Below are positions 13,269-37,670 of a DNA stretch of 64,000 nt, piece by piece (within the stretch, counting starts at the first letter, position 1; each line of letters starts with the position of its first letter). The notes under the pieces were generated by a model. It worked only from the letters and a program-made list of their open reading frames with translations. It had not been told where the DNA came from and did no database searches. The translations under genes were made by a program, and so were the position numbers. This stretch comes from Candidatus Marinacidobacterales bacterium (lineage in GTDB: Bacteria; Acidobacteriota; Vicinamibacteria; Marinacidobacterales; DATDRI01): positions 32,001 to 96,000 of the forward strand of contig OZ245365.1 in NCBI GenBank assembly GCA_965226495.1, given 5' to 3'.

Positions 13269-13294
13269 TTTGCTATGTGTCTAGGCCATTGTGT

Positions 13295-17237: not shown

Positions 17238-17289
17238 ACGGTGGCCTGCCTGCCCCCTGTGAAGGCGGCTTTTTTCATCTGACCGCCCC

Positions 17290-17703
17290 GTGCTAGGAAC
17301 GCCTATGCGAAAGCTCGAGCACCGGTTGAGATCACGGATTACCACCCTCCTTGCACTCGCGCTCTTAGCCCTTGCCTGCCCGGCGTTCGCCGATCAGAAA
17401 CCCGAAGAGGTTGCCAAGAAGGAAGTCGAATTCGGGATCGAAGTTGCCCGAATCGGCCTCTGGCGCGAGGCGGTTTATCGATGGCAAAAAGCCGTAGAGA
17501 TCGACCCGTCGAACGCAAGTGCTCGTAACAACCTTGGGGTTGCCTACGAGCAAGCTGGCCAGTTCGACCTCGCCGACGAACAATACAAGCGGGCGCTCGA
17601 GCTGGACTCCAACAACCTGTACATTCGTCAGAACTACGAGCTTTTCAGGGAAGCCTATGAAAAAAGAAAGAGGAAGACCGGACGCAGCCGCCGTAGTCCG
17701 TAA
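17290..17703 (+). CDS. exported TPR protein
   Basis: Signal peptide (AFA|D); AVEIDPSNASARNNLGVAYEQAG, ALELD TPR motifs. Confidence 0.85.
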   Translation: MLGTPMRKLEHRLRSRITTLLALALLALACPAFADQKPEEVAKKEVEFGIEVARIGLWREAVYRWQKAVEIDPSNASARNNLGVAYEQAGQFDLADEQYKRALELDSNNLYIRQNYELFREAYEKRKRKTGRSRRSP

Positions 17704-18514
17704 CCTTAGGAAGTTTGCCGCTAAAGTAGGAACCGGCGCTCTAGCCCTTACCGGAACCCTGTTCGCCATTTCCTTGGGCTCCTGTACCAATTACTACGAA
17801 GTACCGATCGAGATCCCGGTATCCGCTAAGCTCGATGTCTCCAACTACAACCGCGTCCTGGTCGCGAGTTTCGTCACTCAGACGACGGAAGACCTGGATC
17901 TCGATGCCGAAACGGTTCGCCTTTTGCGTAACCAGCTTCGAACACGTTCTCAGTTGCGGGTCTTGGAAGCGGAACTGGCGCCGCTCGGAGATTTTTCTGA
18001 GACGACTTTGAAGGGGAGCGGAAAGCTCGAGGAGTTCCGTCAACTGGAGGAGGAGGCGAGAGCCGAGGGCGAGGAAGAGATATCGAGGCAAGAGTGGATC
18101 GATATGGAGCAAGACAAGCTGCTTGCCGACTCAGACTATTGGAAGAAGATCGGTGAAGAGTATCAAGATCCCCTCATCGTCAGCGGCCGATTAACATTCA
18201 GCTCCGAGGCACGGTCTGGTTTTGCTCGAGGTGACCGCTACGTGCGGGACGCCTACGGCCGCCCGCGCTTGGTCCGCAGCACGCAGTTTCAGGAGAGGAC
18301 CGGCTTCATCTTGAACGCGGAGTTCTATTTCATCGATGGGCGTACCGGCAAATCAATTCACCGCGAGCGGTTTACCGAAGAGGTAATCTACGGTCGGGAC
18401 GAGAAAACTTCGGCCCTGTCCTCCTATTTCGAGCTGATGGATCGTTTGCTGCCCAATTTCCTGAGTATCCTGAGCCCCCAAACATTTCGAGGAACGCGTA
18501 TTCTCTTGAAATGA
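17657..18514 (+). CDS. lipoprotein, possibly CsgG/LpoB-like alpha/beta fold (start uncertain)
   Basis: Hydrophobic stretch with lipobox LGSC; IDGRTGKSI-type motif near the C-terminus. Confidence 0.7.
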   Translation: MKKERGRPDAAAVVRNLRKFAAKVGTGALALTGTLFAISLGSCTNYYEVPIEIPVSAKLDVSNYNRVLVASFVTQTTEDLDLDAETVRLLRNQLRTRSQLRVLEAELAPLGDFSETTLKGSGKLEEFRQLEEEARAEGEEEISRQEWIDMEQDKLLADSDYWKKIGEEYQDPLIVSGRLTFSSEARSGFARGDRYVRDAYGRPRLVRSTQFQERTGFILNAEFYFIDGRTGKSIHRERFTEEVIYGRDEKTSALSSYFELMDRLLPNFLSILSPQTFRGTRILLK

Positions 18515-18621
18515 CCGACAACGATCTGATTCAACAACGATAGCAATCCAAGCTAGCGAAGCCGCTTCTTTCTTCGCTCGGTCTTGGGATCAACAGGTAG
18601 ATTCAGCAGCGAGGTACGGCA

Positions 18622-21600
18622 ATGAGCGACGTAGCGGGAAGTCTCAGACGGATCGGTGGGGCGACATTGGTCTTCATACTGGTAGCCGGCTCCACCGGGG
18701 CTCAACAGGCGCAATTCCGACCCTACTATGGCAAGAACAAGGTCCAATACGACCACCATGCCTGGCACGTGTACCGTTCGCCTCACTTCGAGGTGTATTA
18801 CTACCCCGAGTTCGAGCAACATCTCGGCCGCGTGGTGAGCTATGCCGAGAGCGCTTACGAGAGGGTATCGAACGAGCTCAAGCACGAAATCTCTTTTCCC
18901 ATTCCGCTGATTCTCTATAAGACCTTCTCCGAGTTCGCACAGACCAACCTGTTGCCCTTCGAAGTTCCGGAAGGCATCCTCGCGTTCGCCGAGCCGGTGC
19001 GGGATCGGATGGTGTTGCCCATCGATGAGCCGCCGGACAAGCTCCAAGAGCTCATCATTCACGAGCTGACTCATATCTTCGAGTTCGACATCATCCCCCG
19101 CTCGTTGGTGCGTCGTTCGGTTCCTTTGTGGATCGATGAGGGACTCGCCGACTACATGACCGGCAAGTGGGATTCGTTGGATCTGATGACGATCCGCGAT
19201 GCTGCGGTCACGGATAATATCCCGACTTTTGAGGAGCTCAACCTGGGATTCTCCAGAACACCCTACAACTTCGGTCATGCCATCTTCGAGTTCATGGAGG
19301 AGCGGTTTGGTAAAGAAGGCATCCGCCGGTTCTTGTTCTCCCTCCGTCGGGCCGTGGTGGGAGGGGTGGGCTCCGACGTCTATCAGCAGGCATTCCGAAT
19401 GGACCCTGATGAGTTCGATCGGCAATTCCGCAAATGGATTAAGGAGCGTTTCAAGCCCTTTCGGGACAAGGAAATCCCTTCCGACTACAGCCAGGACTAT
19501 TCTCCCAATCCGCGGCGGCAAGGAAAGTGGGTGGCGGCGCTCACGGCGGCTCCGTCCCCCTCGCGGGAACTGGCAGCGGTTCTGAGCTTCAACCGGCGTG
19601 ACGGAGAGCTCGACGTCGTCCTCATCTCCGGCAAGGATGGTTCGGTGATTAGAAACCTCACTCCCGGCTATACCGGGGAGTTCGAGTACATCCCGCTAGT
19701 TGGGCAGGATTCGTTTCTGGGGGCCGCCTTGGCGTGGACACCCGACGGCGCGCACGTGGCTTTTTTCGGTAGGTACCAGAAACGTCGCGCCCTAGTTCTC
19801 GTCAATGTACTCAACGCCAAGGTCGCTCGCCGCTACGTGATGCAGGACGACCAAGCGGCCTTTCCGAATTTCGGGCCCGATGGTAAGTACGTCTACTACG
19901 CGGCGTTGAAAGACGGTGTCGGTGACATCTTTCGAATGGACCTCGACACCGAAGAGGTCAACAACATCACCCAGGACGAATTTCGCGACAAGTTCCCGGT
20001 CGTCGATTCGGAGAGTGAGTGGCTCTACTATTCTCGCCGCATCAGCAGCTACGACAAGCTCTACCGCCTGAAACTCGACAACCCCGAGGAAAAAGAACAG
20101 TTGACCTTCGGTCCCTACGACGATTCTGCTCCGACTTTCTCGACGGACGGCAACCTACTTTTCCACGTTTCCAACGAGGACGACAGTATTTACAACCTTC
20201 GCTCGCTGGACCTGGAAACGGGGGATATTCTCCAGTACACCGACGCGCTGGGAGGAAATTTTGCTCCTGCGGTCGTCCTTGACGACAAAGGAACCGAGCA
20301 GCTCCTCTTCACCAGCTACTACAAAGGTGACTATGGACTTTATCGTTTGAGTCTCGAAGAACCAGTCAAGGAGATCACCGCCGATCAGATCATCCGCACC
20401 GAGGGGCCGGTCATCGACTTCGTGCCTCCCGTTCTCCATCAAGTTATTCCGGAGAACAAACGGAAAAAGGGGACATTCGAAAAGCTCTACGTCGCCGGTG
20501 CACCGCCGATCGCGGTAGGAGTCAATAGCGACGGTAGCTTCTTCGGAGGCACCGGCATCCAGTTCAACGACGTGTTGGGCGATCAAAATTTCAGCTTCTT
20601 CGCCTTGTCGGTTCGTGAGTTTCGAAATTTCTCCGGAAATTACACTAACCTTGGACACCGACTGCAGTACTCGGTCACCGGCTTCGATACCACCAGCTTT
20701 TTCTTCACCAATCCGTTCATCCTCGGCCAGCAACGCAATTCGTTCAGCCGTGCCGGTGAGATTGCGACCTTGAAGCAGACTGGTGCGACCATCGCGGCCA
20801 TCTACCCACTAGATCGTTACCGGCGCTTCGAGTTCTACACCGGCTACATCAACCAACGGACTCAGTTCCAGAATCCGTTTCTCGACCCCGACATCAACGT
20901 GGGTGGCGTCGGGTTCGATCCGGGAGTATTTGCCGCTTTTCAGAACTCACTCGACCGGCGCTTTCCGACCGGGGACATCCTGCCGATAGGTGTCACGTAC
21001 GTTTCCGAGACGACTCGCTTTCGGAATTTTGGGCCGCTGGCTGGCAGCACGATGCTCGTCGGCTTCAACGTATCGCCGGGCGGGCCCTTTCTTTCTCGCT
21101 ACACGCTGCAGGCCGATCTGAGAAAGTATCTGCAGCTCACCGGTAGCAGCTTGGCGGCACTGCGCGTGCGGGGTTTTAGTAGCCGTGGGGACAATCCCGA
21201 CTTCTTCTGGTTCGGCGGCGACAATACGATGAGGGGCTACCCCTTTCAGGGATTCGTTGGTAACCGTGGATTCCACGCCAACGCCGAGCTTCGTTTCCCC
21301 ATCATCGACGCCGCGATCACACCGATCGGACTTTTCGGGCCGTTGCGAGGGACGGTGTTCGTCAATTGGGGAGGGGCGGCGTTCGAAGACGAGGCGTTTC
21401 AGGTGTTTGCGAGCGACCTCCGGATCTCGAGAGTGGACGGCCGCGTCGTAGACGGGTGGGGCACCAAGGATACCGTGGCGTCCTGGGGTTTCAGCTTAGG
21501 CTTGAACGCCTTCGGACTCCCGCTTCATTTCGACTGGGTGAAGGTCACCGACTTCGCCTCGACCGTCACGAACAATCTCTCGCTTCGAAACGAGACGCAG

Positions 21601-21935: not shown

Positions 21936-21973
21936 AGGGGGATCTCTACGGTATGTAGATGGGAGGAAAGCTC

Positions 21974-22291
21974 TTGTACGCGATTTTCGAAAGCGGTGGA
22001 AAACAGATTCAAGCCTCTCCCGGTGAACGGGTTCGAGTCGAGAAGCTCGAGGCCGAGGTCGGGTCCAAGGTTCGGTTCGAGCGGGTGTTGTTGCTGAACC
22101 AGGATGGGAAGGTTCAAGTCGGCAAGCCATACCTCGATGGAACCATCGTCGTGGGAACGGTCCTCGAGCAGGCTCGAGATCGAAAAGTTTTGGTCTTCAA
22201 GAAAAAGCGTCGAAAACAGTACCGCCGGACTCATGGACACCGGCAACCCTTTACCGCCGTCGAAATCGAGAAAATCGAAGGCGAGAAGTAG
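21974..22291 (+). CDS. rplU: 50S ribosomal protein L21
   Basis: YAIFESGGKQ, VFKKKRRKQYRRTHGHRQPFT; TTG start after SD GGAGG. Confidence 0.97.
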   Translation: MYAIFESGGKQIQASPGERVRVEKLEAEVGSKVRFERVLLLNQDGKVQVGKPYLDGTIVVGTVLEQARDRKVLVFKKKRRKQYRRTHGHRQPFTAVEIEKIEGEK

Positions 22292-22348: not shown

Positions 22349-22612
22349 ATGGCACACAAGAAAGGTCAAGGCAGCTCCCGGAACGGGCGGGACAGCAACT
22401 CACAACGTCTCGGCGTCAAAGCGTTCGGTGGCCAGTTGGTCACGGGAGGTACTATCCTCGTCCGCCAGAGGGGGACTCGCTTCAAACCAGGAGACAACGT
22501 GGGGCGCGGTAAAGACGATACGCTTTTCGCCCGTTCCAACGGCATCGTTCAGTTCCGGGATCGAGGTCAGCGCGGGCGCTTCATTAGCATTATTCCCCGA
22601 GCGACTTCGTAG
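22349..22612 (+). CDS. rpmA: 50S ribosomal protein L27
   Basis: [24 protein letters not shown]. Confidence 0.98.
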
Positions 22613-24375
<1,763 letters not shown>

Positions 24376-24401: not shown

Positions 24402-24770
24402 TTGACACAGAAGAAGCTAACACTGCGAAGCATGGGGAAGGAACTACGGGTGGCGGTCAAGGCGTCCCAGGAAAAGAAGGCCGCCGATCTTGTGGTATTG
24501 GATTTGAGAGGGCTGGCCAGCTTTACCGATTTCTTTTTACTCGCTTGTGGAACATCGACTCGACAGTTGAAGGCGATCGCGGATGCGGTCGAAGAAGCGC
24601 TCGCGAGCAAGGGCATCAAGCCAGGCCACGTGGAGGGTTATCAGCAAGGCGACTGGATCTTGATGGACTACGTGGATTTCGTGGTTCACGTCTTCACTCC
24701 TCGTAGCCGAGCCTATTACAACTTGGAGCGTCTCTGGGGCGATGCGGAGCGTTTAGCGATAGCGAGTTGA
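24402..24770 (+). CDS. rsfS: ribosome silencing factor
   Basis: KKAADLVVLDL, WILMDYVDFVVHVF, YYNLERLW; follows nadD. Confidence 0.95.
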   Translation: MTQKKLTLRSMGKELRVAVKASQEKKAADLVVLDLRGLASFTDFFLLACGTSTRQLKAIADAVEEALASKGIKPGHVEGYQQGDWILMDYVDFVVHVFTPRSRAYYNLERLWGDAERLAIAS

Positions 24771-24888: not shown

Positions 24889-25881
24889 ATGTCCAAATCT
24901 TCTGACGCGACCGACACGAAGAGTGGAGCCGTGGCGCGTGAGCTCTCGAGTGCTTTCGTTGCTCACGACCCCCAGATGGTCGAAATCGTCGCCCTACTTC
25001 AACGCCTCGCCAACGCACCCACCAATGTTTTGCTTTCCGGGGAAAGCGGAACCGGAAAGGATTTAGCCGCCAGCGCGCTTCACTACTGGGGCAAGCGGGC
25101 CGCTGAGCCGATGGTCAAGGTGGATCTTCCGACCATCCCGGCCGAGCTCATGGAAAGTGAGCTGTTCGGATACGAGAAGGGTGCCTTTACCGGAGCTCAG
25201 GGGACCAAGCTAGGCAAGCTAGAGCTTGCAGGCGAGGGGACGATCTTCTTAGATCAAATCGGAGAGCCGGTGCCGGCGCTTCAGGCGAAGCTGCTTCGGG
25301 TGGTGGAAGACAAGACCTACGAACGCGTCGGTGGGACGCGGACGCTTACCGTTCAAGCACGCATGGTTGCATCGAGTACGGGTAACTTGATGGAAGCGGT
25401 AGAGCGCAAGTCTTTTCGACGTGACCTGTTTCACCGTCTGAGTATTTTCTGGATTCAGTTACCGCCGCTTCGGGAGCGCCGGGACGATATCGTTCCGTTA
25501 GCGCAGCACGTTCTTCGGCGAGAGGGCGAGCGGCTGGGCGGAAATTTCCCCGAGGAATTCGCGGACGGTGTATTGGAAGCGTTCCGCAACTACGTTTGGC
25601 CGGGGAATGTCCGCGAGCTCAAAGGAGCCGTGGAACGCGCTGGGCTGGTGGCACAGGGATCCCGCATAGAACGCGACGACCTGCCCGATTCCGTATTGGA
25701 CAGTCCTTCGGTAACGTTTCGCCTGGGAAGTAAGGATAAACCGACTCTGGTCGATGTCGAAAAAAGCTACATCGAGCGGACTCTCCGTTACGTAGGGGGA
25801 AATCAAACCCGAGCCGCGAAGATTTTGGGAATCAGCCGGAAGGCGCTCTGGGAGAAGCGCAGGCGGTATGGTATGGACTAA
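24889..25881 (+). CDS. sigma54-dependent enhancer-binding protein (AAA+ plus Fis HTH) with no sensory domain and an atypical Walker B
   Basis: GESGTGKD, ESELFGYEKGAFTGA, TIFLDQI, FRRDLFHRL, WPGNVREL, GNQTRAAKILGISR. Confidence 0.92.
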   Translation: MSKSSDATDTKSGAVARELSSAFVAHDPQMVEIVALLQRLANAPTNVLLSGESGTGKDLAASALHYWGKRAAEPMVKVDLPTIPAELMESELFGYEKGAFTGAQGTKLGKLELAGEGTIFLDQIGEPVPALQAKLLRVVEDKTYERVGGTRTLTVQARMVASSTGNLMEAVERKSFRRDLFHRLSIFWIQLPPLRERRDDIVPLAQHVLRREGERLGGNFPEEFADGVLEAFRNYVWPGNVRELKGAVERAGLVAQGSRIERDDLPDSVLDSPSVTFRLGSKDKPTLVDVEKSYIERTLRYVGGNQTRAAKILGISRKALWEKRRRYGMD

Positions 25882-25893
25882 ACTGGAGCGTAG

Positions 25894-27258
25894 ATGAGAT
25901 TCAAGACCCTGTTTAGCCTGCTGATGATATTTGTGGCGGTCTGGTTTTTGGCGTCCACGATCGCCATGAACCGGGCTCCGGTGGAGATCAGCCTGGCCCT
26001 CCTCCAGCCCCTCAGCTTGGAGCTGTGGATGGCGCTGTTAGGGGCCTTTGGCGCCGGGGCGGCAGTCATTCTCTTTTTCGATCTCGCCGGTGGGGCGCGG
26101 CGCTTCGCGCAAAACTGGAGGGCCCATCGGCTCAACCGTGCACACGAGAAGACCGAGGACCTCTATCTCCATGGTTTGGACGATATGGTGAACACGCGCT
26201 ACGAGGAGGCGGTGGTCTGCTTCGACAGCGTGCTCTCGCGAGAACCTGAGCACCTGAATGCACTCATCAAACGGGGCGACAGCCTCCATGTGCTAGAGCG
26301 TTATCGGGAAGCGGCGGAGTCGCTGAAGCGCGCGACCCGGCTTGCCCCTCAGCATTTGGTGGCACTCTACTGCCTGTCGGACGTCTACCTAGATCTCGGC
26401 GACTGGGAACAGGCGGAAGACGTGCTCAAGAGTATCATCCAGCTCGATCCTCGAACGACCGTCTCTGCTCATCGAAAGCTCCGCGAACTCAAGATCAGAC
26501 AGAAGAACTGGCAAGCTGCCGATGAGCTTCAGACCAAGGTAGAAAAGATGGTCACGTTGAGCGCCGAGAAGGAGAAGGCCAAAGCAGTTTGGTTGGGTAT
26601 TCGCTTCGAAGTGGGCCGAGCCCAACTCTCACGGGGCGAGCCGAAGGAGGCCATCGTCTCATTCAATTCCGTGATCAAGCGCGACCCCCAGTTCGTCCCC
26701 GCCTATCTGAAGCTTGGTGAGGCGCACGAGATGGCCGGACAGACGAAAGAGGCTCTGGTTGTTTGGCGCATGGGCTACAAGACCACCGGTTCGACGGAGT
26801 TTCTCGCGGCGATTCAGAATTTCTTCCTTGCGAACGAGGAGCCCGAGGAGGCGATCGGAGCTTGGAAGCAGGCGATTGTACTTTCCGACAACGAAGCGCC
26901 ACTACGATATTGCTTAGGGAAATTGTACTACCGACTCTTCATGTTGGACGAGGCCTTACACGAGTTCCGTCAGATCGAAGATACGGTCAGTGGTCTTCCA
27001 GCTCTCCACGTCTACATCGCGCGAGTTCTAGAGAGCCAGGGAGACTTCAAAGAAGCACTGAGCAAGAGTAAGACCGTTCTCGGCGAGGTCGGCGGATTGA
27101 TGCAGGACTATGACTGCGGCTCTTGCAAGACGACGTATTCAGAATGGAGCGACTATTGCGAGCATTGTCGGAAGTGGAACTCGGTCCAGCTCAGCGTACG
27201 TGCCGCGGTCCGACCTGAACCCACGATTCGACCCGCTCCGACTTGGTCCACCTCCTAG
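25894..27258 (+). CDS. lapB: LapA-domain/LapB-like fusion (LPS assembly/regulation TPR protein)
   Basis: Two N-terminal TM segments with N...V.I.L (LapA-like), TPRs, C-terminal rubredoxin YDCGSC...CEHCRKWNSV. Confidence 0.75.
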   Translation: MRFKTLFSLLMIFVAVWFLASTIAMNRAPVEISLALLQPLSLELWMALLGAFGAGAAVILFFDLAGGARRFAQNWRAHRLNRAHEKTEDLYLHGLDDMVNTRYEEAVVCFDSVLSREPEHLNALIKRGDSLHVLERYREAAESLKRATRLAPQHLVALYCLSDVYLDLGDWEQAEDVLKSIIQLDPRTTVSAHRKLRELKIRQKNWQAADELQTKVEKMVTLSAEKEKAKAVWLGIRFEVGRAQLSRGEPKEAIVSFNSVIKRDPQFVPAYLKLGEAHEMAGQTKEALVVWRMGYKTTGSTEFLAAIQNFFLANEEPEEAIGAWKQAIVLSDNEAPLRYCLGKLYYRLFMLDEALHEFRQIEDTVSGLPALHVYIARVLESQGDFKEALSKSKTVLGEVGGLMQDYDCGSCKTTYSEWSDYCEHCRKWNSVQLSVRAAVRPEPTIRPAPTWSTS

Positions 27259-27271
27259 GTCCCATTCCGGG

Positions 27272-28021
27272 ATGTCAGGCGTATCGCTCGAGACTGGTCC
27301 GGTGCGAACCATCCTCGCGGGCCTCGTTGCCATTGGGTTCCCATCGCCTTGTCTCATTTGCCGGGCATCTCTCGAGTGGCCGCTCGAGGGACCGATCTGC
27401 GATCTCTGCTGGCGGTCGATGCCAATGATCATGCCGCCCTATTGCCCGCGTTGCGGCATGCCCTTCGGGGAGACGGTGGCGCCCGGACTATGTGGCCCGT
27501 GCCGTGTGGAAAATGGACGCCGCTTTCGCCGTGCTCGCGCGTTGGGGCCATACGATGGGGGCCTGAAAGAGACGCTCCTCTCCCTGAAGTTCGGCGGGCG
27601 GTCCCGCCTGGCCTCGACCTTGGGGAAGAGGGCGTTTCGATCGATCCTCGCCACCGGCGAACTGGACGCGGGGGCGGCGGTTGTCCCGGTGCCACTTCAT
27701 TGGCGTCGTCGTCGTGAGCGCGGATACAACCAGGCGGAGTTATTGGCGAAGGCCATCGCAAAGGTTGCCGAGCGACCCTGCTGCTCGGCCCTGGTCAAAG
27801 TCGTGCCGCGTCCTCCTCAATCCGGGTTGAGCGCGGGTGCGCGTCGACGAAACGCGGCCGGAGCCTACCGCGCGCGGCTTCCAGCTTGGCTCCGGCGCAA
27901 GCGTCTGTTGCTGGTCGATGACGTCTTCACAACGGGCGCGACGGCCGAGGCGTGCACGCGGGCGTTGCTCGGTGCCGGTGCGCGGTCGGTGGACGTCCTC
28001 ACCGTAGCCCGCGTTCCGTAG
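27272..28021 (+). CDS. comF: ComF family protein (Zn-finger plus PRTase domain)
   Basis: CxxC clusters, VPVPLH, RGYNQA, LLVDDVFTTGAT. Confidence 0.92.
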   Translation: MSGVSLETGPVRTILAGLVAIGFPSPCLICRASLEWPLEGPICDLCWRSMPMIMPPYCPRCGMPFGETVAPGLCGPCRVENGRRFRRARALGPYDGGLKETLLSLKFGGRSRLASTLGKRAFRSILATGELDAGAAVVPVPLHWRRRRERGYNQAELLAKAIAKVAERPCCSALVKVVPRPPQSGLSAGARRRNAAGAYRARLPAWLRRKRLLLVDDVFTTGATAEACTRALLGAGARSVDVLTVARVP

Positions 28022-28082
28022 AAAGCTGAAGAGTGGCCGCTTTTTGATCCCTACTATGGAAAGGGTCTAGAATAGAGGCGAC

Positions 28083-28919
28083 GTGTTCAGAGGAGCGATG
28101 ATGTCGAGGCGGAGCATCTTTTTGTTGTTTTTCATTCTCGCGGTGGTGGTCGGATGGACCGGCCACGGATTGGCCTGGGGTGACGTGGCCTATCGACTTG
28201 CGCTAGAAGAAGCGATCGATGCGTTACCCAAGCCGCTCAAGAACTTCTACAAAGACCGGAAGGTCTATTTGACGCAGCAGCTAGAAGACGTGACCATAAC
28301 CGCACCGAGGTCTGTTTTCGAGGTCGATCTGTTGGAGCCCTTCCCCTTCGACAATCTATCGCTCGATAGAGAGTCGGCGGTTCGGACATATGGGGAGGAC
28401 AAGCTCGGCGAGGTCGGAGATCTGCCGTGGAGGATGATCGAAACCTACGAAAAACTCACCGAGGCGTTCAGGCAGATGGACCTCGAGACGATCGATATGC
28501 TTTCGGCGGAGCTCCTACTGTACGTCGCGGACCTGAGTCAACCTTTGATCGTGTCGAAGGAAGGCGACGGCGACATGATTAGTCAGGAAGGCTTTCGTGA
28601 GCGCTTCGACAGCCGGTTGCTGGACATCTATGGGAGCAAGTTGAAGGTGGACGCGTCGACCGCGATTTACCTTGACGACCCCAACGCGTACATCATCTCC
28701 ATGCTCGTCCGCTCCTATGTCTGGGTGGATAACCTTCTGCTGTACGATTATCTCTCCCGCAAAGGCGTCTCGAGCTATGACCGGTTCTACTACGAGGGGC
28801 TCTGGCTTCGCGCCGAGGAGATCGTCAATGAGCGTGTCTCGGATGCTGCAGAGGATGTCGCGAGTTATTGGTATACGGCGTGGAGCAAGGCAGGAAGGCC
28901 GGATCTACCCAAGAACTAA
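28083..28919 (+). CDS. exported S1/P1-nuclease / Zn-dependent phospholipase C-fold protein with degenerate metal sites
   Basis: Signal peptide, then WG....L...A...LP..L..FY, GDLPW, YVADLSQPL, SYWYTAW..AG.PDL. Confidence 0.6.
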   Translation: MFRGAMMSRRSIFLLFFILAVVVGWTGHGLAWGDVAYRLALEEAIDALPKPLKNFYKDRKVYLTQQLEDVTITAPRSVFEVDLLEPFPFDNLSLDRESAVRTYGEDKLGEVGDLPWRMIETYEKLTEAFRQMDLETIDMLSAELLLYVADLSQPLIVSKEGDGDMISQEGFRERFDSRLLDIYGSKLKVDASTAIYLDDPNAYIISMLVRSYVWVDNLLLYDYLSRKGVSSYDRFYYEGLWLRAEEIVNERVSDAAEDVASYWYTAWSKAGRPDLPKN

Positions 28920-29054
28920 CTTTAGCAGGGTGCTGGGGAATGCACTGCAGCCTGCGCGAGCCGAGCGAGCCCGGCCCGCATGGGCCGACGAAAGGAGCGC
29001 CGAGCGAGGAGCGAGGCGCCAAGCGCGCGAACGAGGAGTGAGCGCGCATTGATG

Positions 29055-29969
29055 CTAGTAAGCTTGGAAACTCCTGACCGTCCAGACATCGATTCCCCGA
29101 AAAACCAAACCCACATAAGCTGCGACCAGCAGCCAAAAGGCGAACCTTACCGCGGGTCTTTCGGCCAGCGCCGTGAGTAGCTTCTCGGTCGCAACGTACA
29201 TCTCGTGGGACGCGACCGCGAACGGGGGGAACCCCAAGAAACCGGCAACCGGCATCTCGAAGATTGGCGCCCAGTCGAAAAAGGGTATCTCGTAGACCCA
29301 CTTACTTCGCGCCCAGAAGTTCCAGCATTCCCAAAGGAGGCCACAGATCATTCCTGCACCGGCCAACCGATAGAGACTTCCTGGTCCCCGTTCGCGGATC
29401 GTCCGCAAGACTCCTTTTCCGCCCAGGCGAAAGTTGAGGGCGGCAAAAAATACCGGAGGCCCTAACCAGATCAAGGGGAAGAAGTAGAGGGGCCAAATCC
29501 AGGGCAACAGGCTTCCGAGCAGTCCCATCCACAGCAGGCGGTTCGGCAGCTTGGGCGGGAGGGTTGAACTTGGAGCCGATGGGGGTCGCCAAAAGACTTC
29601 GAGGAGCTGGGCAGTCACGAAGATGCCGGGCAAGACAGTAGCGTAGGAGAGTGCATAGCCAAACCATCTCACGGCGAGTTCGGAAGGGATCTCGACGTAG
29701 TACCAATTCCCGAGGCGGAAGTTTGTTAACTCGAATGTGGCCCAAATGGCGATGGACAACAACAACAACCTCGGTGCCTGAGGGTTGGAGAGGACGATGC
29801 TCGTCCCGCCCCGCCTCCGGAGCCACGCGTCGGCGAACACGATGTAGCTCCACCAAGCGAAGGAGTAGTACCAAGTAGCGAATGGCTCCCACCCGGCCAA
29901 CATGCTTGCGGTGGCCACGGCAAAGACCGCCGCCGCCCCACCCATTGCTATCAAGTCCAATCGAATCAC
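29055..29969 (-). CDS. polytopic membrane protein of unknown function
   Basis: About 9 hydrophobic segments; repeated FE..N....NW.Y / WE.WNFWA.SKW.Y motifs. Confidence 0.8.
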   Translation of the reverse strand: MIRLDLIAMGGAAAVFAVATASMLAGWEPFATWYYSFAWWSYIVFADAWLRRRGGTSIVLSNPQAPRLLLLSIAIWATFELTNFRLGNWYYVEIPSELAVRWFGYALSYATVLPGIFVTAQLLEVFWRPPSAPSSTLPPKLPNRLLWMGLLGSLLPWIWPLYFFPLIWLGPPVFFAALNFRLGGKGVLRTIRERGPGSLYRLAGAGMICGLLWECWNFWARSKWVYEIPFFDWAPIFEMPVAGFLGFPPFAVASHEMYVATEKLLTALAERPAVRFAFWLLVAAYVGLVFRGIDVWTVRSFQAY

Positions 29970-30014
29970 CGTTTTGCCCCGGAAGCCCTAATTCAGGAAA
30001 CTGAAACTCCTAAA

Positions 30015-30023
30015 TGCTACAAT
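30015..30023 (+). promoter_or_regulatory. extended -10 element for the ECF operon
   Basis: TGCTACAAT. Confidence 0.45.
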
Positions 30024-30058
30024 AGTTCGGGGGAGCGTTTCTTCTCTGCTCTGGGTCA

Positions 30059-30802
30059 TTGATCCGGCAGCAACTTCGCGTTCTTCCTGGTGACAGGAGT
30101 CACTCCACCTCAAACAAACCGTGGGATTTGGTGCCGCCTAGCAAGGATCGATCGACAGAGACATTGGTCTCTGAGCTTGCCGACCGGGCACTCATCGACC
30201 GGTGCGTGGCTCGACGGTCCGTTGTCGAGAAGGAGGCGGCCTGGGAGGAGATCGTCCGCCGCTACCGCCGAAAGGTGTTTGGGATCGCCTACAAGTTCAC
30301 CGGCCGGTACGAAGAGTCCGAGGACCTGTCTCAAGAGATTTTTTTTCGCGTCTTCCGATCTCTCGATCGATTCGACCGCGGCGCCGATTTCGGCACCTGG
30401 CTGTACTCGGTTAGCCGGAATCACTGTATCGATCACTATCGGAGCGGCCGCCGGGAGCGCGAGGCGCTGGTCGATCGAGAGATCAGGATGGAGGATATGG
30501 TTTCTAGTCGATTCGATCCGCATCGATCGCTGGAGGCGTTGGACCATAAACAGTTGCTGTCGCGCGCCCTCGAGGAGCTACCCGCTAAGCTCCGTGAGGC
30601 GGTGGTGTTGAGAGACATTCATGGTCTAACCTATCAGGAGATCGTGGACCGTCTCGGGCTGCCGGAGGGCACGGTGAAGAGCCGAATTAATAGAGGCCGT
30701 TTGGAGCTGGGGCGGGTACTGTTGGCTGCGAACGGCAACGATTTATCGAAGGGAGCTGCCACCGAAAAGGCAGGCAAACATACCTATGAATCTCCAAATT
30801 GA
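30059..30802 (+). CDS. ECF sigma-70 factor (start uncertain)
   Basis: SEDLSQEIFFRVFRSL, FGTWLY.V.RN.CID, LTYQEI...LGLPEGTVKSRINRGR. Confidence 0.93.
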   Translation: MIRQQLRVLPGDRSHSTSNKPWDLVPPSKDRSTETLVSELADRALIDRCVARRSVVEKEAAWEEIVRRYRRKVFGIAYKFTGRYEESEDLSQEIFFRVFRSLDRFDRGADFGTWLYSVSRNHCIDHYRSGRREREALVDREIRMEDMVSSRFDPHRSLEALDHKQLLSRALEELPAKLREAVVLRDIHGLTYQEIVDRLGLPEGTVKSRINRGRLELGRVLLAANGNDLSKGAATEKAGKHTYESPN

Positions 30803-31121
30803 ATCATCGGGCGAAGTAAAAATAGTTCGCATCAAGGAAGCCAAGCTGGTCTATCCCAAATTGACTGATTTTTTTGGGGAAGTCTCCGGGCTCATGGAGT
30901 CCGGTACTCGGAAGCTTATTATCGATCTATCGGATGTAAGCTACATCGACAGTGCTTCCATCGGCTGTCTCATGGATATATATCGACTGATGTCGGAGCG
31001 CTCCGGTTCGCTGAAGTTGGTAGGGTTACAGGAGCGAGTGGAGACGATGGTCAGTTTGACGGGACTCCATAATCTGGTAGACGTTTACCGTGAAGAAAAA
31101 ACAGCTCTGGACAGCTTCTGA
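30786..31121 (+). CDS. STAS-domain anti-sigma-factor antagonist
   Basis: LIIDLSDVSYIDSASIGCL with the conserved phospho-acceptor Ser. Confidence 0.9.
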   Translation: MNLQIESSGEVKIVRIKEAKLVYPKLTDFFGEVSGLMESGTRKLIIDLSDVSYIDSASIGCLMDIYRLMSERSGSLKLVGLQERVETMVSLTGLHNLVDVYREEKTALDSF

Positions 31122-31124
31122 GGG

Positions 31125-31517
31125 ATGCCCGACATGAAGAGAACCAAGATTAGTCAGGTCGGCGCCGCCGAGCTCAGGAAAATAAAGATGCTAACTGGCC
31201 ATGAGATTCCTCTCGATGGGGATCTTCTGTACGTTTTGGAATCACTGTATCGGGAGGTCACCCTGAAACAGGAGCTCAAGGCGACCTTCGAGGACGTGAT
31301 GCAAGAGATCAACCACCTCGTGGAGGAGATGGACGAGGTTTCAAGAAAGCGCTATCTAGTCGAGAGTCTTTTCTTGAACACCGTGACTTATGAAAACGAA
31401 AGGCTGGGCGCGTATATGAAGACGCTGACCGGAGGGGCGGAGGAGGCTAAGGCGATCGACTCGGGTCAAACTGGCCAAACAGACAAGGCCGGTGAGCCGG
31501 AGAGTGAAGATTCTTAG
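31125..31517 (+). CDS. hypothetical helical protein
   Basis: Tightly coupled downstream of the STAS gene; natural composition. Confidence 0.75.
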   Translation: MPDMKRTKISQVGAAELRKIKMLTGHEIPLDGDLLYVLESLYREVTLKQELKATFEDVMQEINHLVEEMDEVSRKRYLVESLFLNTVTYENERLGAYMKTLTGGAEEAKAIDSGQTGQTDKAGEPESEDS

Positions 31518-31548
31518 CGTGAACAAAACGAACAACGAAGGAGAAACG

Positions 31549-31986
31549 ATGAAGAGACTAGCCGGCACGTTGTTAATGCTAGCTTGGATTGGTCTTCCGA
31601 CGATGACCGCGATGGGTCATCAGAGCAAGAGTGCGACCAAGCCGGTGAAGGGGCCGGCAATCGAAGTGACGCCAGAGTTACACGACTTCGGTAAAGTCGA
31701 GCAAAACCTTACCCTCGATACGGAGTTCGAGATCCGTAACATTGGTACGGTGGAAGTGAACATCGGACGTATCTCGACTTCTTGCGGTTGCACGGCGGCA
31801 CTCACTGCCGATCAATTGGTGAAGCCCGGCGAGTCGACGACTCTCAAGGTGACGCTGGAGACGAGGCGTTACAAGGGGCGCATTACGCGCAGCGTCTCCA
31901 TCGCGTCGGACGCCGTGAATAAAATCTCGACCGTCAAGGTAACGGCGTTCGTGCTCGAAACGACTGAGGAATTACCGCCGAGATAG
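31549..31986 (+). CDS. exported DUF1573 (Ig-like) protein
   Basis: Signal peptide; HDFG, F...N.G, STSCGCTAA, VKPGES; SD AAGGAG. Confidence 0.85.
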   Translation: MKRLAGTLLMLAWIGLPTMTAMGHQSKSATKPVKGPAIEVTPELHDFGKVEQNLTLDTEFEIRNIGTVEVNIGRISTSCGCTAALTADQLVKPGESTTLKVTLETRRYKGRITRSVSIASDAVNKISTVKVTAFVLETTEELPPR

Positions 31987-32007
31987 GTTTCCCTAGAAAG
32001 GGGAACC

Positions 32008-32130
32008 CCGTCGCCCATATGGTCGCCAGAATACGGGAGTGCCGGTTACCAGAGGTGGCCAGGCGGTTCCGTCGCCCGTGCCAGCCGCCAAAATACGGGG
32101 TGCCGGTCACCAAACGTGGCCAGGCGGCGG
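32008..32130 (+). repeat. two degenerate ~61-bp tandem units (module B of the dispersed family)
   Basis: CGCCAGAATACGGGAGTGCCGGTTACCAGAGGTGGCCAGGCGG and CGCCAAAATACGGGGTGCCGGTCACCAAACGTGGCCAGGCGG. Confidence 0.8.
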
Positions 32131-32145
32131 TAGGGAAGGGTTCTT

Positions 32146-33054
32146 CTAGGAGACGGGCTCGGTGACCGGAGTCTTGGCCGCGGTGACCGCCACGGTGACT
32201 GGCTCCGGGTAGCTCACTTGCTCCCAGCAATCCGGCGACTCGATGATCTGGCGCACCAACTGCGTGTGGAGACAGTGCCCGGCGCGAACCGCGACCACGT
32301 GAGCGAGCAATGGGCGGCCCAGTAACGACAGGTCCCCTAAGATATCGAGGATCTTGTGCCGGACGAACTCGTCGGGGAAGCGAAGCGGGTTGTTGAGCAC
32401 TCCGGCCTCACCGAGAACGACCGCGTTATCCAAGGACCCACCAAGCGCTAATCCCGCCTGCCGAAGTTGTTCCACATCTTTGAGAAACCCAAAGGTGCGG
32501 GCCGGGGCGAGCTCTTCGACGAACGAATCCTCGTCGATCTCGAGCGAGTGCTGTTGATGTCGTAGCAAAGGATGGTCGAAGTTGATCGTGTAGCTCACTC
32601 GCAGTGAATCGGCTGGATAAGCGGCGACCTGCCGACCTTCTGATTCCACGGCTATCGGACGGGTGAGCTTCAAATAGGAACGCTCTTTCGGTAAGCTCCG
32701 AAACCCCGCTTCGTGGATCAAATAGATGAAGGGCGCGGCACTGCCATCCATAATGGGAACCTCGGGGGCATCGAGCTCGACGATGGCGTTGTCTACACCC
32801 AGCGTCGCGAGTGCCGCAAGGAGGTGCTCGACCGTCTCTACTCGTACTTCACCCTTGGAAAGGCAGGTTGCGTAATTGAGCCGGGCAAGATGTTCCGATG
32901 TCGCGGGGATCTCGAAGTGATTGCGGTCCATTCTTCTAAAAATGATCCCCGTGTCCGCCGCCGCAGGTTTTAGGGTTAGCCTGACCTTGCGACCCGAGTG
33001 GAGGCCTATCCCGACACAGCCACTTTCACGTTTTAGAGTTCTTTGAAAATGCAT
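32146..33054 (-). CDS. lpxC: UDP-3-O-acyl-GlcNAc deacetylase
   Basis: QRTL, GIGLHSG, TVEHLLAAL, EVPIMDGSA, ARTFGF, GGSLDNA, RHKILD.LGDL. Confidence 0.97.
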   Translation of the reverse strand: MHFQRTLKRESGCVGIGLHSGRKVRLTLKPAAADTGIIFRRMDRNHFEIPATSEHLARLNYATCLSKGEVRVETVEHLLAALATLGVDNAIVELDAPEVPIMDGSAAPFIYLIHEAGFRSLPKERSYLKLTRPIAVESEGRQVAAYPADSLRVSYTINFDHPLLRHQQHSLEIDEDSFVEELAPARTFGFLKDVEQLRQAGLALGGSLDNAVVLGEAGVLNNPLRFPDEFVRHKILDILGDLSLLGRPLLAHVVAVRAGHCLHTQLVRQIIESPDCWEQVSYPEPVTVAVTAAKTPVTEPVS

Positions 33055-33096
33055 GAGACCTCGAAACCCCTCTATATAATAGGCAGCCAAACAACC

Positions 33097-33112
33097 AGCA
33101 AGCATTGTGCCA
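33097..33112 (-). promoter_or_regulatory. sigma54 (-24/-12) promoter of lpxC
   Basis: Minus strand TGGCAC-AATGC-TTGCT, consensus with exact spacing, about 43 bp upstream of the ATG. Confidence 0.8.
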
Positions 33113-33192
33113 GGAAAGCCGTGGCGGGCTCGCTCAGTAAACCTATGATGGTAAACGGATTGGGCCTGCACCCCGACAAGCGCCAGGCGGGC

Positions 33193-33243
33193 TGTGTCAC
33201 GATTGCCACAGTAACTTCTGCCCATTGTCTCATATCTGCAACA
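33193..33243. promoter_or_regulatory. two candidate upstream activator sequences
   Basis: TGTGTCA-N4-TGCCACA (33193-33210) and TGTCTCA-N4-TGCAACA (33226-33243), 33 bp apart. Confidence 0.6.
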
Positions 33244-33312
33244 GGCGTCTGGCCAGGTCCCAGCTACGACTCCCCGTTGAATGACGCTCGAGTGGTCAGG
33301 CATTGGTAACTC

Positions 33313-33321
33313 TGCTAAAAT
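33313..33321 (+). promoter_or_regulatory. extended -10 element for the SDR gene
   Basis: TGCTAAAAT 34 bp upstream of the start. Confidence 0.5.
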
Positions 33322-33354
33322 GCTCGCGTCTCCACGAACAAGGATCAGATCCGG

Positions 33355-34098
33355 TTGAGAGTCGCGGGTAGGGTTGCGCTCGTCACGGGCGCTGCGGGCG
33401 GGATCGGGCAAGCGGCGGCCAGCATTCTTGCCGAAGAGGGGGCGCGGCTCGCGCTCAACGACCTGCCGGGAGCAGAACTCGGGGCTCTCACCGCAGAGCT
33501 CGAGAAAAAAGGCCATGCTTTTTCCGTGCATCAGGCCGATGTGACCGACGGTCGAGCGGTCGAAAAGATGTTCTCCGAGGTCATCGCTCGATGGGAAGGG
33601 CTGGACATCGTACTGGCCAATGCTGGCATCAATCGAGATGCCTTCGTCGAAAAACTCGACGAAGAGGAGTGGGACCGAGTCCTAGACGTGAACTTGAAAG
33701 GCTGCTTCCTCACGTGCCGAGCCGCTTTCCAGGCGATGTCGTCCCGGGGCGGCGGGACGATCGTCGCGACTTCTTCCGTCTCTGCTCTCGGCAACATCGG
33801 CCAGAGCAACTATGCCGCGTCCAAGGCGGGGATTTTGGGGCTGGTTCGGTCACTAGCCCTCGAAGGCGCTCACGTCGGAATCCGTGTGAACGCGGTGGCC
33901 CCCGGATTTACCGACACCTCGATGGTAAGATCGATCCCCGAGAGAGTCCGGGACAAGTTGCTCGCTCGCGTGCCGCTTGGTCGGATGGCGCGCCCGGACG
34001 AGATCGGCCAAGCGATGCTCTTCCTCGCTAGTCCGGAATCGAGTTACATTACAGGACAAGTGATTTTTGTGGACGGCGGCGCAAGCGTGGGGTTTTAG
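33355..34098 (+). CDS. fabG: SDR family oxidoreductase, 3-oxoacyl-ACP reductase-like
   Basis: TGAAGGIG, NAGI, GNIGQSNYAASK, VNAVAPGF, YITGQVI.VDGG. Confidence 0.75.
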   Translation: MRVAGRVALVTGAAGGIGQAAASILAEEGARLALNDLPGAELGALTAELEKKGHAFSVHQADVTDGRAVEKMFSEVIARWEGLDIVLANAGINRDAFVEKLDEEEWDRVLDVNLKGCFLTCRAAFQAMSSRGGGTIVATSSVSALGNIGQSNYAASKAGILGLVRSLALEGAHVGIRVNAVAPGFTDTSMVRSIPERVRDKLLARVPLGRMARPDEIGQAMLFLASPESSYITGQVIFVDGGASVGF

Positions 34099-34635: not shown

Positions 34636-35787
34636 TCAGGGAAGGAACTTGCTTACCCGCTTCAGCTTCTGCGGGAGATACTCCTCTAGCACGTAGTTCA
34701 ATCCCCACTTCGCTAGAGCTTGTTGCTCGGCGCGCACACCCATCTTTAGTAGCTGGGTGATGGCCGCTGACCAGGCCGGCTGGCTCTTGAAGAAGGGGTC
34801 GTTCTTGAGGGCGTCCTTAGCGCGTTTGATGTCGACCTCTTTGAGGGGGTGGGTCGGGAGCTTGTAGTCCCGAATATCCTGAGGCGTCACTCCTAGGTAG
34901 CGGGCGCTGGGGACACAGAAAAATTGATTGATGTGGGCGGCGTTTCCGGAGCCTACCTTGAGCGTTCGGTAGATGTTTGAGATCCCGTAAGGATCGCAAT
35001 CGACGAAGGCGTACACTGGAATCTTCGCTTCTTCGGAAAGTTTGCGGATGAAACGGCGGGTGGCACGCGTCGGCACCCCTCCCATCGAGACCAGAATACA
35101 TTTGGCCTTCTGCCAGAACTTGTGGCTCTGCAGTCTTTGAAACATGCCGCCCGTCTCGATGGCGAGGACGAACTTGGCGTTGGTCTCGAACGATAGATGT
35201 TCCACCGAGCTCGGGATCGAGTAGGCGCCGGAGCCGAAACGCGTGCAATCGATCCGCTCCACCGCACCGGTCTCGATATCGGGGTCGTAGACGATGAGCT
35301 GACCGGCGACCGCGCCGCCATGCTCGTCAGGAGTGAACCGCAGCTGCTCCCGACTCACCTTGTACATTGAGAACATCGCCTCGATGTCGTCCATGACCGT
35401 ATCGGACTCGGTTTGCTCCTGGAATCCGGCGTCGCCCCAATTCTTGGACTGGTAGTAGGCGTCTCGTTTGGTGGCGAAGTCGTTGGATTCGATGAGATCC
35501 TTGGAGAGCGACATCATCCGGAGCGTTTGAGCAAAGGTCTTCACCGTGGACACCGTGAGCGTTCGCACCTTCTTCTGCTTTCCGATTTCGAGATAGCCAC
35601 TCTTTTTCGAATAGCTGACGTTAGAGAGCGACCGAACGGGAAACTTCAAATCGGGTTTGCCGCGCTTTAGGATCTTCCTATTGGTCTCTTCAGCGGTTCG
35701 GGTGATGAGCTTGAGCGTGTTCTGATCGAGCCGTTTGTTCTTCCGCTTGACCTCGGCGACGTAGCGTTTGGCCTGGGTGGCTCTCAT
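34636..35787 (-). CDS. top6A: DNA topoisomerase VI subunit A (Spo11 family)
   Basis: TKRDAYY catalytic Tyr motif, [43 protein letters not shown]. Confidence 0.93.
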
Positions 35788-37670
35788 ACCTTACGACTCC
35801 TCTCTAACGTGTCGGTGAGCACGTTCACGGTTTTGTCCCGTTGTTTGTCGGTCAAAGAGAGTATGTCCTGCAGTGCAACCCCGATCTGTGGGATGTACTT
35901 TTGAATGTACGCCAGCTTCTTGGTCTCTGCCGCTTCTCGTTTCCGCCGCCGGATGTGAGCACCCAGCTTCCTTCCCACCTCCTGTAGACCCAGGCGTAGC
36001 TCTTTGAGTATCTCCGGGTAATGCGCGATCGCCTCTTTACTCTCCGAGGTAAAGGGCACCCAGACCGAGGCGATGTGAACGAACAAAACCATGGGGCCGG
36101 TCGGTCCCGCACTGCGGGATTGTTGGAGTCCGTAGTTTCTCCAATCGGTACCGATGACCGCCTTGTTGATGGCGCAAGCCGAGGCCTGGTATTGGAGAGG
36201 GACACGATTGGCAACCCTAAAGACATCGGCCAGCTCTTCCGCTGCCAAAGAGCCTCCGTATGCCACCCCGATCTCGACCTGAAAGGGATTGCCGCGGTAG
36301 ACGTTCGGCGAGCGAGTGCTCGCCTCGTAGAAATCGGCCTCGATCCGTTTCTTGAGGCCGGACACGATGGCCTCCTCACCGATGGGGGCTAGGCAGTTGG
36401 TGGGAGGGGCCATGATCTTCACTTCCGGGATGGCGCGAAAGACCTTCTCGGCGTCCACCCTAGAGAGATTCTTCGGGCGGTTCTCCGGCCGAAGTCCCGC
36501 TTTTTCGATGATCTGGTTGGCCACTTTGGAGGAGACTCGGGAAAAGTCGTCCATGAGCGCTCCTTTGAGGGAGCGTGAGCGCGTTTCTTTGAGCATCTTT
36601 ATCAACACGCCCAGTTCGACCCCGTTAGGGTGGGGCTTGATAGCGACCGTTTCCCGCGGATGCTCTTTGGTGGCACGCTCGTAAACCACGGCCTCCCGGC
36701 TGGGGGCCGTGTATTTGATCGAAGCGTGCGGATTGGCTATGGCCGTTTGTTCGATGTAGTCGTCGACTGAGCGGCGGCCTCTCTTGTAGGTGCCCTCGAG
36801 CTCGATCTCGACTCGCGTTCCGTGATCGAGATGCCAGCTCGAGAGCTTATCGTCCTTGACGACCTCGGGTTGATTAGTCCGGGTGTCGATATGCATCTCA
36901 TAGTAGTGAGCCGGCCTACTCTTGCCAGTTCGCGACCAGATCCGAACGGGTTTTCCAGTCGTGAGTTGGCCATACATGGAAGCTGCTGAGATGCCGATAC
37001 CTTGCTGACCGCGGCTTTGCTTCAAAGTGTGAAACTTGGAACCGTAGAGCAGCTTGGCGAAGATCTTCGGGATTTGAGCCCTGACGATGCCAGGGCCATT
37101 GTCCTGAACGGCGATCCGAAACCGATCTTCGGCCAGAGTCTCTATGGTCACCTCGAGATCGGGAAGGATGCCGGCTTCTTCGCATGCGTCGAGGGAGTTG
37201 TCCACTGCTTCTTTGACGGTGGTCAGCAACGCCTTTTGAGGATTATCGAACCCCAGGAGGTGGCGGTTCCGAGTGAAGAACTCGGATACCGAGATCTCGC
37301 GCTGCTTGGTGGCGAGAGTTTCCGCGGAAACCCGCGGTGGCGTTTTGGGTTCTGCCGGTTTCGTCGGTTGCCCAGTTGTTGGCTCCGCAGTCTCATCGAC
37401 ATTTTTCGGCGAGGTTACGAGCTTCAGCGACGATTGTTTTCTTCTCTCTGTTGCAGTAAGCGGCAGTTCGATCTGTTTCGACTTGCCTTTGACGACCCGC
37501 AACGAGCGCTTGGAAGCAGTCCCTTTCTTTTTCTTGGGCTTTGATCTCTTTCGCGCCTTCGGGCTCTCTTTACGCTTTGGCTTGTGCACTCCCAATAGCC
37601 TCCTTTGGGATTTCACTTCGCGGGGCAACGACTCGCGACCCTCGAGTAATCGTGAATGTGAAAGAGTCAT
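35784..37670 (-). CDS. top6B: DNA topoisomerase VI subunit B (GHKL ATPase) with a basic N-terminal extension
   Basis: [72 protein letters not shown]; ATGA overlap with top6A. Confidence 0.95.

Follow-up and report, generated by a model that had tools for sequence, protein, structure and literature searches.

The window analysed here is a stretch of 64,000 nucleotides from a Candidatus Marinacidobacterales bacterium (contig OZ245365.1, positions 32,001 to 96,000 of the forward strand), and all coordinates below are counted from its first letter. Between 24889 and 33243, it carries three genes that bear on the synthesis of lipopolysaccharide (LPS). The first (24889-25881, +) encodes a bacterial enhancer-binding protein (bEBP) and was assigned from Pfam, NCBIfam, and motif matches. 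The second (25894-27258, +) encodes a LapA/LapB-like fusion protein, hereafter LapAB, and was assigned from Pfam, a family profile, and a structural model. The third (33054-32146, -) is lpxC, identified by Pfam LpxC and TIGR00325. The original prediction read these genes as an LPS control circuit composed of a sensorless activator, a LapA-LapB fusion, and a sigma-54-driven lpxC, in which LapAB might regulate the bEBP. Our comparison with related genomes agrees with the individual components of that proposal, and indicates that lpxC transcription is very likely sigma-54-dependent throughout a Vicinamibacteria-type clade. The comparison set consisted of 80 loci collected in one species-genome scan with a profile of the LapAB-like family, each with up to 10 kb on either side; the best-matching loci are titled Candidatus Marinacidobacterales or Vicinamibacteria, and the names of close protein homologues also assign the window to the Acidobacteriota, class Vicinamibacteria. 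Motif counts cover the window plus the 80 loci (1,361,732 bases), and 45 open reading frames (ORFs) of the window were scanned with Pfam.

The lpxC product is a 302-residue protein that matches Pfam LpxC with an E-value of 3.7e-106 and reaches the curated equivalog score of TIGR00325 (328.8 bits, cut-off 187.25). As had been claimed, the gene does not follow ftsZ (58623-59846, at the end of the dcw cluster), where a Ser/Thr kinase gene is found instead. Sigma-54 promoters have the consensus TGGCAC-N5-TTGC, with GG at -24 and GC at -12 at a fixed spacing. The element TGGCACAATGCTTGC at 33112-33098 (-) matches this consensus exactly, is the only exact match in the 64 kb, and lies 43 nt from the lpxC ATG. 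A Shine-Dalgarno-like GAGGGG, which probably acts as the ribosome-binding site, can be read directly at 33067-33072 (-). The listed lpxC ORF is longer, at 461 residues up to position 33531; this is an in-frame upstream extension, and the LpxC domain begins only at its residue 163. The 159 codons that this ORF (32146-33531, -) holds beyond the true start span the promoter and both activator boxes described below, and the start of lpxC could be mis-called there by automatic annotation.

Two candidate upstream activating sequences (UAS) are found farther from the gene, both within the interval 33190-33245 named in the original prediction. The proximal site is an 18-bp dyad, TGTGGCAATCGTGACACA (TGTGKC-N6-GMCACA; 33210-33193, -), the center of which lies approximately 115 nt upstream of the inferred lpxC start site (near 33087). 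The distal box, TGTTGC-N6-GAGACA (33243-33226, -), is a degenerate copy of the dyad, and its ACA is 33 bp from that of the proximal site. Both fit the range expected for a UAS, approximately 80-150 bp from the promoter, and both are conserved. Exact copies of TGTG-N10-CACA occur 11 times in the 1.36 Mb, nine of them upstream of lpxC, and the remaining six lpxC upstream regions contain close variants.

Relatives bear out the expectation that the promoter and its activator sites would recur upstream of lpxC. The gene is found 4-6 kb downstream and on the opposite strand in 14 of the 80 loci, all of the Vicinamibacteria type, and an element of the form TGG[CT]A[CT]-N5-TTGC precedes it in all 15 sequences (these 14 loci and the window), 16-100 nt before the start codon. 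The five spacer bases of this element vary between lineages. Among the 52 promoter matches of at least 9/10 in the searched bases, seven are perfect and 45 score 9/10; all seven perfect matches and seven of the 45 are lpxC promoters, and the fifteenth lpxC promoter, that of locus L042, scores 8/10. Alignment of the 15 upstream regions (A5) gives a mean column identity of 54% with 27 invariant columns, almost all of which fall in the distal box, the dyad (TGT..C and ACA), TGG.A of the -24 box, and TTGCT of the -12 box. The distal box is visible in 15/15 sequences and contributes the invariant columns G44, C45, A48, A50, G52, A55, C56, and A57. Because the -24/-12 element and the dyad are conserved in all 15 sequences while the flanking sequence has drifted, the element is best read as a real sigma-54 promoter. 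Two loci stand out in this comparison. In L001, the lpxC 5' leader (8679-8762) contains seven tandem 12-nt units, each including a Shine-Dalgarno-like GAGGGG; the promoter-to-ATG distance is therefore stretched to 100 nt. Locus L012 is without lpxC because three transposase genes (DDE, Mutator, and IS110; 12299-19935) have replaced the conserved block after comF.

The bEBP is a protein of 330 residues. Its Sigma54_activat domain (PF00158) spans residues 24-189 (E 4.5e-55) and is followed by an AAA lid domain and by a Fis-type helix-turn-helix (HTH) domain, HTH_8 (PF02954), which scores 53 bits (cut-off 22) over residues 287-327. The Walker A motif GESGTGK and the EKGAFTGA loop are intact and are invariant across 36 orthologues (alignment A3). 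Pfam detects no domain in residues 1-23, ahead of the AAA+ domain, and NCBIfam models of the NtrC, AtoC, and PspF types match the protein only over their AAA+ and HTH parts, with PspF scoring lower than the NtrC, AtoC, and ZraR types. The same architecture is seen in relatives. An upstream stop codon limits the extension before the AAA+ domain to fewer than 60 residues in 37 of 47 bEBP loci, none of six scanned frames among the ten longer ones holds an extra domain, and all of the 120 best database homologues listed (54-93% identity, 193-385 residues) have only AAA+, lid, and HTH domains. Neither Pfam, nor the six longer frames, nor these 120 homologues reveal a receiver domain, and no kinase gene was found beside the bEBP among the Pfam-scanned ORFs of the window. 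By architecture, the protein belongs to the sensorless sigma-54 activators, as had been predicted. In two loci, L013 (8977-9879) and L041 (6063-8111), the bEBP frame contains an in-frame stop, which may reflect a pseudogene or an assembly error; L013 retains the lpxC promoter and dyad.

The stop codon of the bEBP gene ends at 25881 and the lapAB ATG begins at 25894, in agreement with the 12 bp originally reported. Because this 12-nt gap also holds a GGAG, the two genes are likely co-transcribed. LapAB is 454 residues long. A LapA_dom match (PF06305) at residues 26-88 is marginal at 27.9 bits against a cut-off of 28; the same domain is present in many homologues in the precomputed list, some of which NCBI names as LapA domain-containing. 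Two hydrophobic segments (residues ~5-25 and ~42-65) have positively charged flanks, and they are followed by many tetratricopeptide repeat (TPR) matches in Pfam, with the TPR domain predicted to be cytoplasmic. At the C-terminus, a CxxC...CxxC arrangement (C408, C411, C422, and C425) forms a rubredoxin-like Cys4 motif that is nearly invariant in alignment A1 and invariant in alignment A4. A LapAB profile built from 23 family members aligns with the LapB structure 8v24_A in a single stretch (65-432 against 12-381, E 5e-23). It also aligns with the LapB chains 7wzb, 9up5, and 4zlh, and the alignment extends through the Cys4 domain. In the AlphaFold2 model (mean pLDDT 85.8), a helical hairpin leads into a long TPR array, which is followed by a small strand domain at the C-terminus; the top TM-scores of the model in the PDB are to LapB (9up5_B, 0.75; 4zlh_A, 0.72; full-length 7t6d_A, 0.61). 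Generic TPR proteins outrank LapB by E-value but are a poorer fit. These comparisons uphold the proposed fusion: LapAB is a distant LapB homologue joined to a probable LapA-type membrane domain, although not a certified equivalog. Loci L002 and L004, on the same 5.7-Mb contig, each contribute a LapAB-like gene to one genome; identity to the window protein is 80% for the first and 75% for the second, and the second gene has no adjacent bEBP, rsfS, or comF.

The bEBP-lapAB order was expected to be conserved in relatives, and it is: in 47 of the 80 loci, the LapAB-like gene is preceded on its own strand by a bEBP gene. Three of the other loci have no sequence upstream. All but one of the bEBP-lapAB loci are titled Acidobacteriota or a class within it. 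They fall into two groups by spacing. The gap is 12-208 bp in 16 Vicinamibacteria-type loci (group 1). Group 2 comprises 31 loci from other Acidobacteriota, with records titled gp22, Polarisedimenticolia, and Terriglobia as well as one Verrucomicrobiia; 30 of them have a gap of 400-600 bp, and L041 has one of 1,637 bp. Annotation is available for the gap of L022 only, where a 128-residue DksA/TraR-type zinc-finger gene (9565-9951) stands between the bEBP and lapAB; a similar gap of 400-600 bp is seen in 29 other non-Vicinamibacteria loci. In the gap that separates the bEBP gene from lapAB, a sigma-54 promoter scan of group 2 returned only 8/10 matches, in nine of the 32 loci scanned, and these have no conserved position outside three closely related gp22 loci. 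Clusters of 8-9/10 matches elsewhere in group 2 were rejected as promoters since they lie inside coding sequence, for example on the opposite strand within lapAB.

The next question is which activator serves the lpxC promoter. The 45 scanned ORFs of the window include no bEBP besides the one next to lapAB. Each of the 14 lpxC-holding loci likewise yields a single bEBP match within 10 kb, that beside lapAB, and of their sigma-54 matches, the one at lpxC alone is conserved from locus to locus. In four loci of a sister clade (L048, L056, L057, and L062), the block running from comF to DUF1573 is kept, and the bEBP and lpxC are both missing at the syntenic places; in L056, the ORFs after DUF1573 have no Pfam matches. 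Because this bEBP is the only one nearby, the lpxC promoter is the only conserved one, the two genes are absent together, and Desulfovibrio offers a precedent, the bEBP is the favored candidate for the lpxC activator. On these comparisons, a link from the bEBP to lpxC appears much likelier than a link from LapAB to the bEBP.

These data suggest a mechanism in which lpxC is transcribed from a sigma-54 promoter that would require an ATP-driven activator bound approximately 115-150 bp upstream. Encoded 7 kb from lpxC, the sensorless bEBP would use its Fis-type HTH domain to occupy the dyad and the distal box, and would drive open-complex formation at the lpxC promoter. lpxC may be its main or only target, as for the dedicated regulator in Desulfovibrio. 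Since the bEBP has no sensor, either its own abundance or a partner protein would set its output. LapAB, translated from the shared transcript, would keep the role of LapB, which is to bind LpxC and hold it back at the membrane. In that case, the committed step of lipid A synthesis would receive both its accelerator (lpxC transcription) and its brake (LpxC inhibition or turnover) from a single operon. We give this overall picture, in which the bEBP activates lpxC and the co-transcribed LapAB restrains LpxC, an even chance of being correct.

Several observations weigh against it. The bEBP gene and lpxC are separated by 7 kb and eight ORFs, no copy of the dyad was found near the bEBP operon, and rpoN is not within the 64-kb window. 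None of the 31 group-2 loci, all of which have a bEBP near lapAB, holds lpxC or a conserved sigma-54 promoter within 10 kb. The shared absence of the bEBP and lpxC in the sister clade is probably one evolutionary event. The synteny is also tempered from two directions. The backbone obg-nadD-rsfS-lapAB-comF occurs without the bEBP in other phyla (Nitrospirota and deltaproteobacterial loci) and in many Acidobacteriota; the bEBP was therefore inserted into a gene string that is old and stable. A quick tree of 77 LapAB proteins requires eight changes in whether a bEBP is present, at least six of them forced by well-supported branches, and on that account the bEBP has been lost or gained repeatedly while lapAB was kept. 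Finally, the best NCBIfam LapB equivalog, NF008757, gives LapAB 49.9 bits against a cut-off of 363; because its scores are far under the LapB cut-offs, LapAB is not an equivalog by the NCBI rule. According to PMC3333781, orthologues of DVU2934, the lpxC regulator of D. vulgaris, are present in Acidobacterium capsulatum, and a response-regulator-type activator encoded elsewhere is for that reason possible.

The last point leads to the strongest alternative, in which the lpxC promoter is real and is served by a bEBP encoded elsewhere, for example one resembling DVU2934, while the lapAB-adjacent bEBP controls an unlinked target. The A. capsulatum orthologues (PMC3333781), the 31 group-2 loci, and the missing dyad at the bEBP operon all favor this explanation, as does the recognition helix of the HTH domain, which differs between group 2 and group 1. 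By-eye inspection of alignment A3 against the lpxC upstream regions for covariation between the HTH domain and the half-sites gave no clear signal. The gene neighborhoods argue the other way: in 14/14 lpxC-holding loci, no second bEBP lies within 10 kb, and no sigma-54 promoter other than that of lpxC is conserved; the L048/56/57/62 clade has neither the bEBP nor lpxC at the syntenic places. Moreover, nearest-promoter reasoning of this kind is reported to have found the true target in D. vulgaris (PMC3333781). We regard a separately encoded activator as a real but minority possibility.

The preferred explanation, in which the lapAB-adjacent bEBP activates lpxC, has two special cases that differ in what governs the bEBP. 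In one, the TPR/rubredoxin part of LapAB switches the bEBP off or on in the manner of PspA and PspF, and the status of the membrane or of LPS feeds back on lpxC. The absence of a sensor in the bEBP, the 12-nt gap, the predicted cytoplasmic location of the TPR domain, and the retention of gene order in 47/80 loci across deep acidobacterial branches are consistent with such gating. However, 30 of the 77 tree rows have no bEBP and still show lapAB at its usual place and length, with at least six losses or gains of the bEBP, and no LapAB sequence feature was found to vary with whether a bEBP is present. The adjacency also lies within the older rsfS-lapAB-comF backbone, and the linkage may for that reason be a matter of inheritance and not of selection; a DksA/TraR-type gene (as annotated in L022) intervenes in group 2. 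A complex prediction for the bEBP (A3) and LapAB residues 70-454 (A4), run with no controls, scored 0.00 against a mark of 0.32 and counts neither for nor against an interaction. No publication linking LapB with a bEBP or with sigma-54 was found in a mostly abstract-level search to which subscription journals were outside the scope, and the main text of Francke et al. 2011 (PMC3162934) has no mention of lpxC, lipid A, TPR, yciM, or Acidobacteria. We consider gating of the bEBP by LapAB unlikely. A sharper version, with LapAB as the missing sensor whose cytoplasmic TPR/rubredoxin domain responds to an accumulation of LPS or its precursors in the inner membrane by binding the bEBP or passing it to FtsH, is doubtful to the same degree. 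If true, it would mean that the acidobacterial LapB checkpoint acts on lpxC transcription through sigma-54, beside or in place of LpxC proteolysis.

In the other special case, LapAB leaves the bEBP alone. The bEBP would always be active, and its amount would be set by transcription of a run of genes on the + strand, consisting of rplU (21959-22291), rpmA (22349-22612), obg (22664-23716), nadD (23713-24375), and rsfS (24402-24770, identified by Pfam) followed by the bEBP and lapAB, so that lpxC transcription would track growth or stringent status. rsfS, a member of the obg-nadD-rsfS-lapAB-comF backbone, is the immediate upstream neighbor of the bEBP. The 118-bp gap between the two contains no terminator-like or sigma-70-like site, although the scans used are crude and not built for Acidobacteriota. 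DksA-like proteins may point to stringent control, and a DksA/TraR-type gene between the bEBP and lapAB in group 2 (annotated in L022) fits coupling to growth rate. We hold this coupling to be quite unlikely. The weakest alternative, that the motif matches are due to chance and a housekeeping sigma factor transcribes lpxC, is hardly credible: approximately 2.6 matches with at most one mismatch are expected by chance per 64 kb, but 15/15 promoter elements are conserved at the same place around a variable spacer, the 7/7 perfect matches in 1.36 Mb stand at lpxC, and a crude scan not built for Acidobacteriota revealed no sigma-70-like site on the strand of lpxC.

The remaining genes of the region are as follows. 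After lapAB, a comF-like gene ends at 28021 (+), and two ORFs without a family follow at 28083-28919 (+) and 29055-29969 (-). The next four genes, all on the + strand, encode an extracytoplasmic function (ECF) sigma factor (30059-30802), a STAS protein (30786-31121), a 130-residue product of unassigned function (31125-31517), and a DUF1573 protein (31492-31986). This block (30059-31986), which lies between comF and lpxC and in which the STAS protein is of the anti-sigma antagonist type, looks like a partner-switching module. It is complete in 11 of the 14 lpxC-holding loci, partial in L001, L005, and L006, and complete in all four bEBP-less sister loci. The 3' end of lpxC is 4.9 kb from the end of lapAB, which matches the 5 kb or so given in the original prediction. 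On the far side of lpxC, a FabG-like reductase gene (33355-34098, +) is transcribed divergently; a conserved extended -10 element (TGnTAnnAT) at 33293-33321 (+) would serve it, and the two genes share a common control region of 300 bp. Farther along, beside the lpxC region of this bacterial genome, lie genes for the A subunit (34636-35787, -) and the B subunit (35784-37670, -) of Topo VI, a type IIB topoisomerase. Two large Ser/Thr kinases are encoded at 6026-8476 (+) and 59924-62530 (+), the latter directly 3' of ftsZ; one of the two has an N-terminal TPR region and one has C-terminal PD40/beta-propeller repeats.

LpxC catalyzes the committed step of lipid A synthesis and is an antibiotic target, and its control outside the enterobacteria is largely an open subject. 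The window and its relatives provide a well-supported case of putative sigma-54 transcriptional control of lpxC in a second phylum, with a regulatory region clean enough for direct testing. They also offer a possible reason for a LapB-like gene and a sigma-54 activator to travel together in many Acidobacteriota. Should the bEBP and LapAB interact, LapB would regulate a transcription factor in addition to serving proteolysis as an adaptor; should they not, the Desulfovibrio-type lpxC regulon would gain a new member whose activator is built differently.

PspF and HrpR/S are sensorless bEBPs that are controlled in trans by partner proteins, PspA in the case of PspF and HrpV in the case of HrpR/S. 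The bEBP described here resembles them in having AAA+ and HTH domains without an N-terminal regulatory domain, and in having an adjacent gene for a membrane-associated candidate partner. It differs from both pairs in that LapAB has no homology to PspA or HrpV, and in that its proposed target is not a neighboring gene but lies at a distance of 7 kb.

In E. coli, LapA and LapB are encoded by separate genes, whereas here they would form one polypeptide. LapAB contains a two-helix region that marginally matches the LapA (YciS) domain, and its membrane anchor, TPR array, and Cys4 rubredoxin domain are shared with E. coli LapB (YciM), as described in PMC11046580, PMC9356133, and PMC9460159. E. coli LapB is reported to bind LpxC through TPR loops (loop glycines) and the rubredoxin domain, to inhibit it, and to commit it to FtsH (PMC11046580). 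Control of LpxC in E. coli is mainly by proteolysis; here, a dedicated sigma-54 promoter would be added. A predicted sigma-54 promoter at lpxC is also mentioned in a review on Leptospira (PMC12655853), the consulted part of which names no dedicated activator, UAS, or link to lapB.

The closest parallel is found in Desulfovibrio, and it overturns the suggestion of the original prediction that this control mode had not been described. Sigma-54 control of lpxC by a dedicated bEBP is not new, because it has been published for D. vulgaris and D. alaskensis (PMC3333781, PMC4045070). In D. vulgaris, the sigma-54-dependent response regulator DVU2934 is reported to have a single target, lpxC (DVU2917), and a validated site, GTGTGCAGAACACAC, at -136 (PMC3333781, with Table S7 and Additional file 2); this regulon is also listed in a table of PMC4641369. 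For D. alaskensis G20, a sigma-54 site and a regulator site centered at -101 have been described at lpxC, and in a mutant of the cognate kinase, lpxC was the only gene strongly up-regulated (PMC4045070). As with DVU2934 and Dde_3003, a -24/-12 promoter lies just upstream of lpxC in the window, the regulator gene is some genes away from lpxC, and the proposed activator would be dedicated to lpxC alone. A dyad is likewise present approximately 100-136 bp upstream in Desulfovibrio, with half-sites of the GTGT...ACAC type. The half-sites resemble those found here but are spaced differently, by five bases: the Desulfovibrio motif is TGTG-N5-CACA, whereas TGTG-N10-CACA is found here, and the published GTGTG-N5-CACAC-type motif is not what stands upstream of lpxC in the 15 sequences. 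The available portions of PMC3333781 and PMC4045070 report no linkage to lapB. Compared by description, the Desulfovibrio activator belongs to a two-component system, being a response regulator accompanied by a cognate kinase and an HD-GYP partner, unlike the bEBP of the window. The novelty of the present case, in another phylum, lies in an activator that has no sensor and that is linked to lapB.

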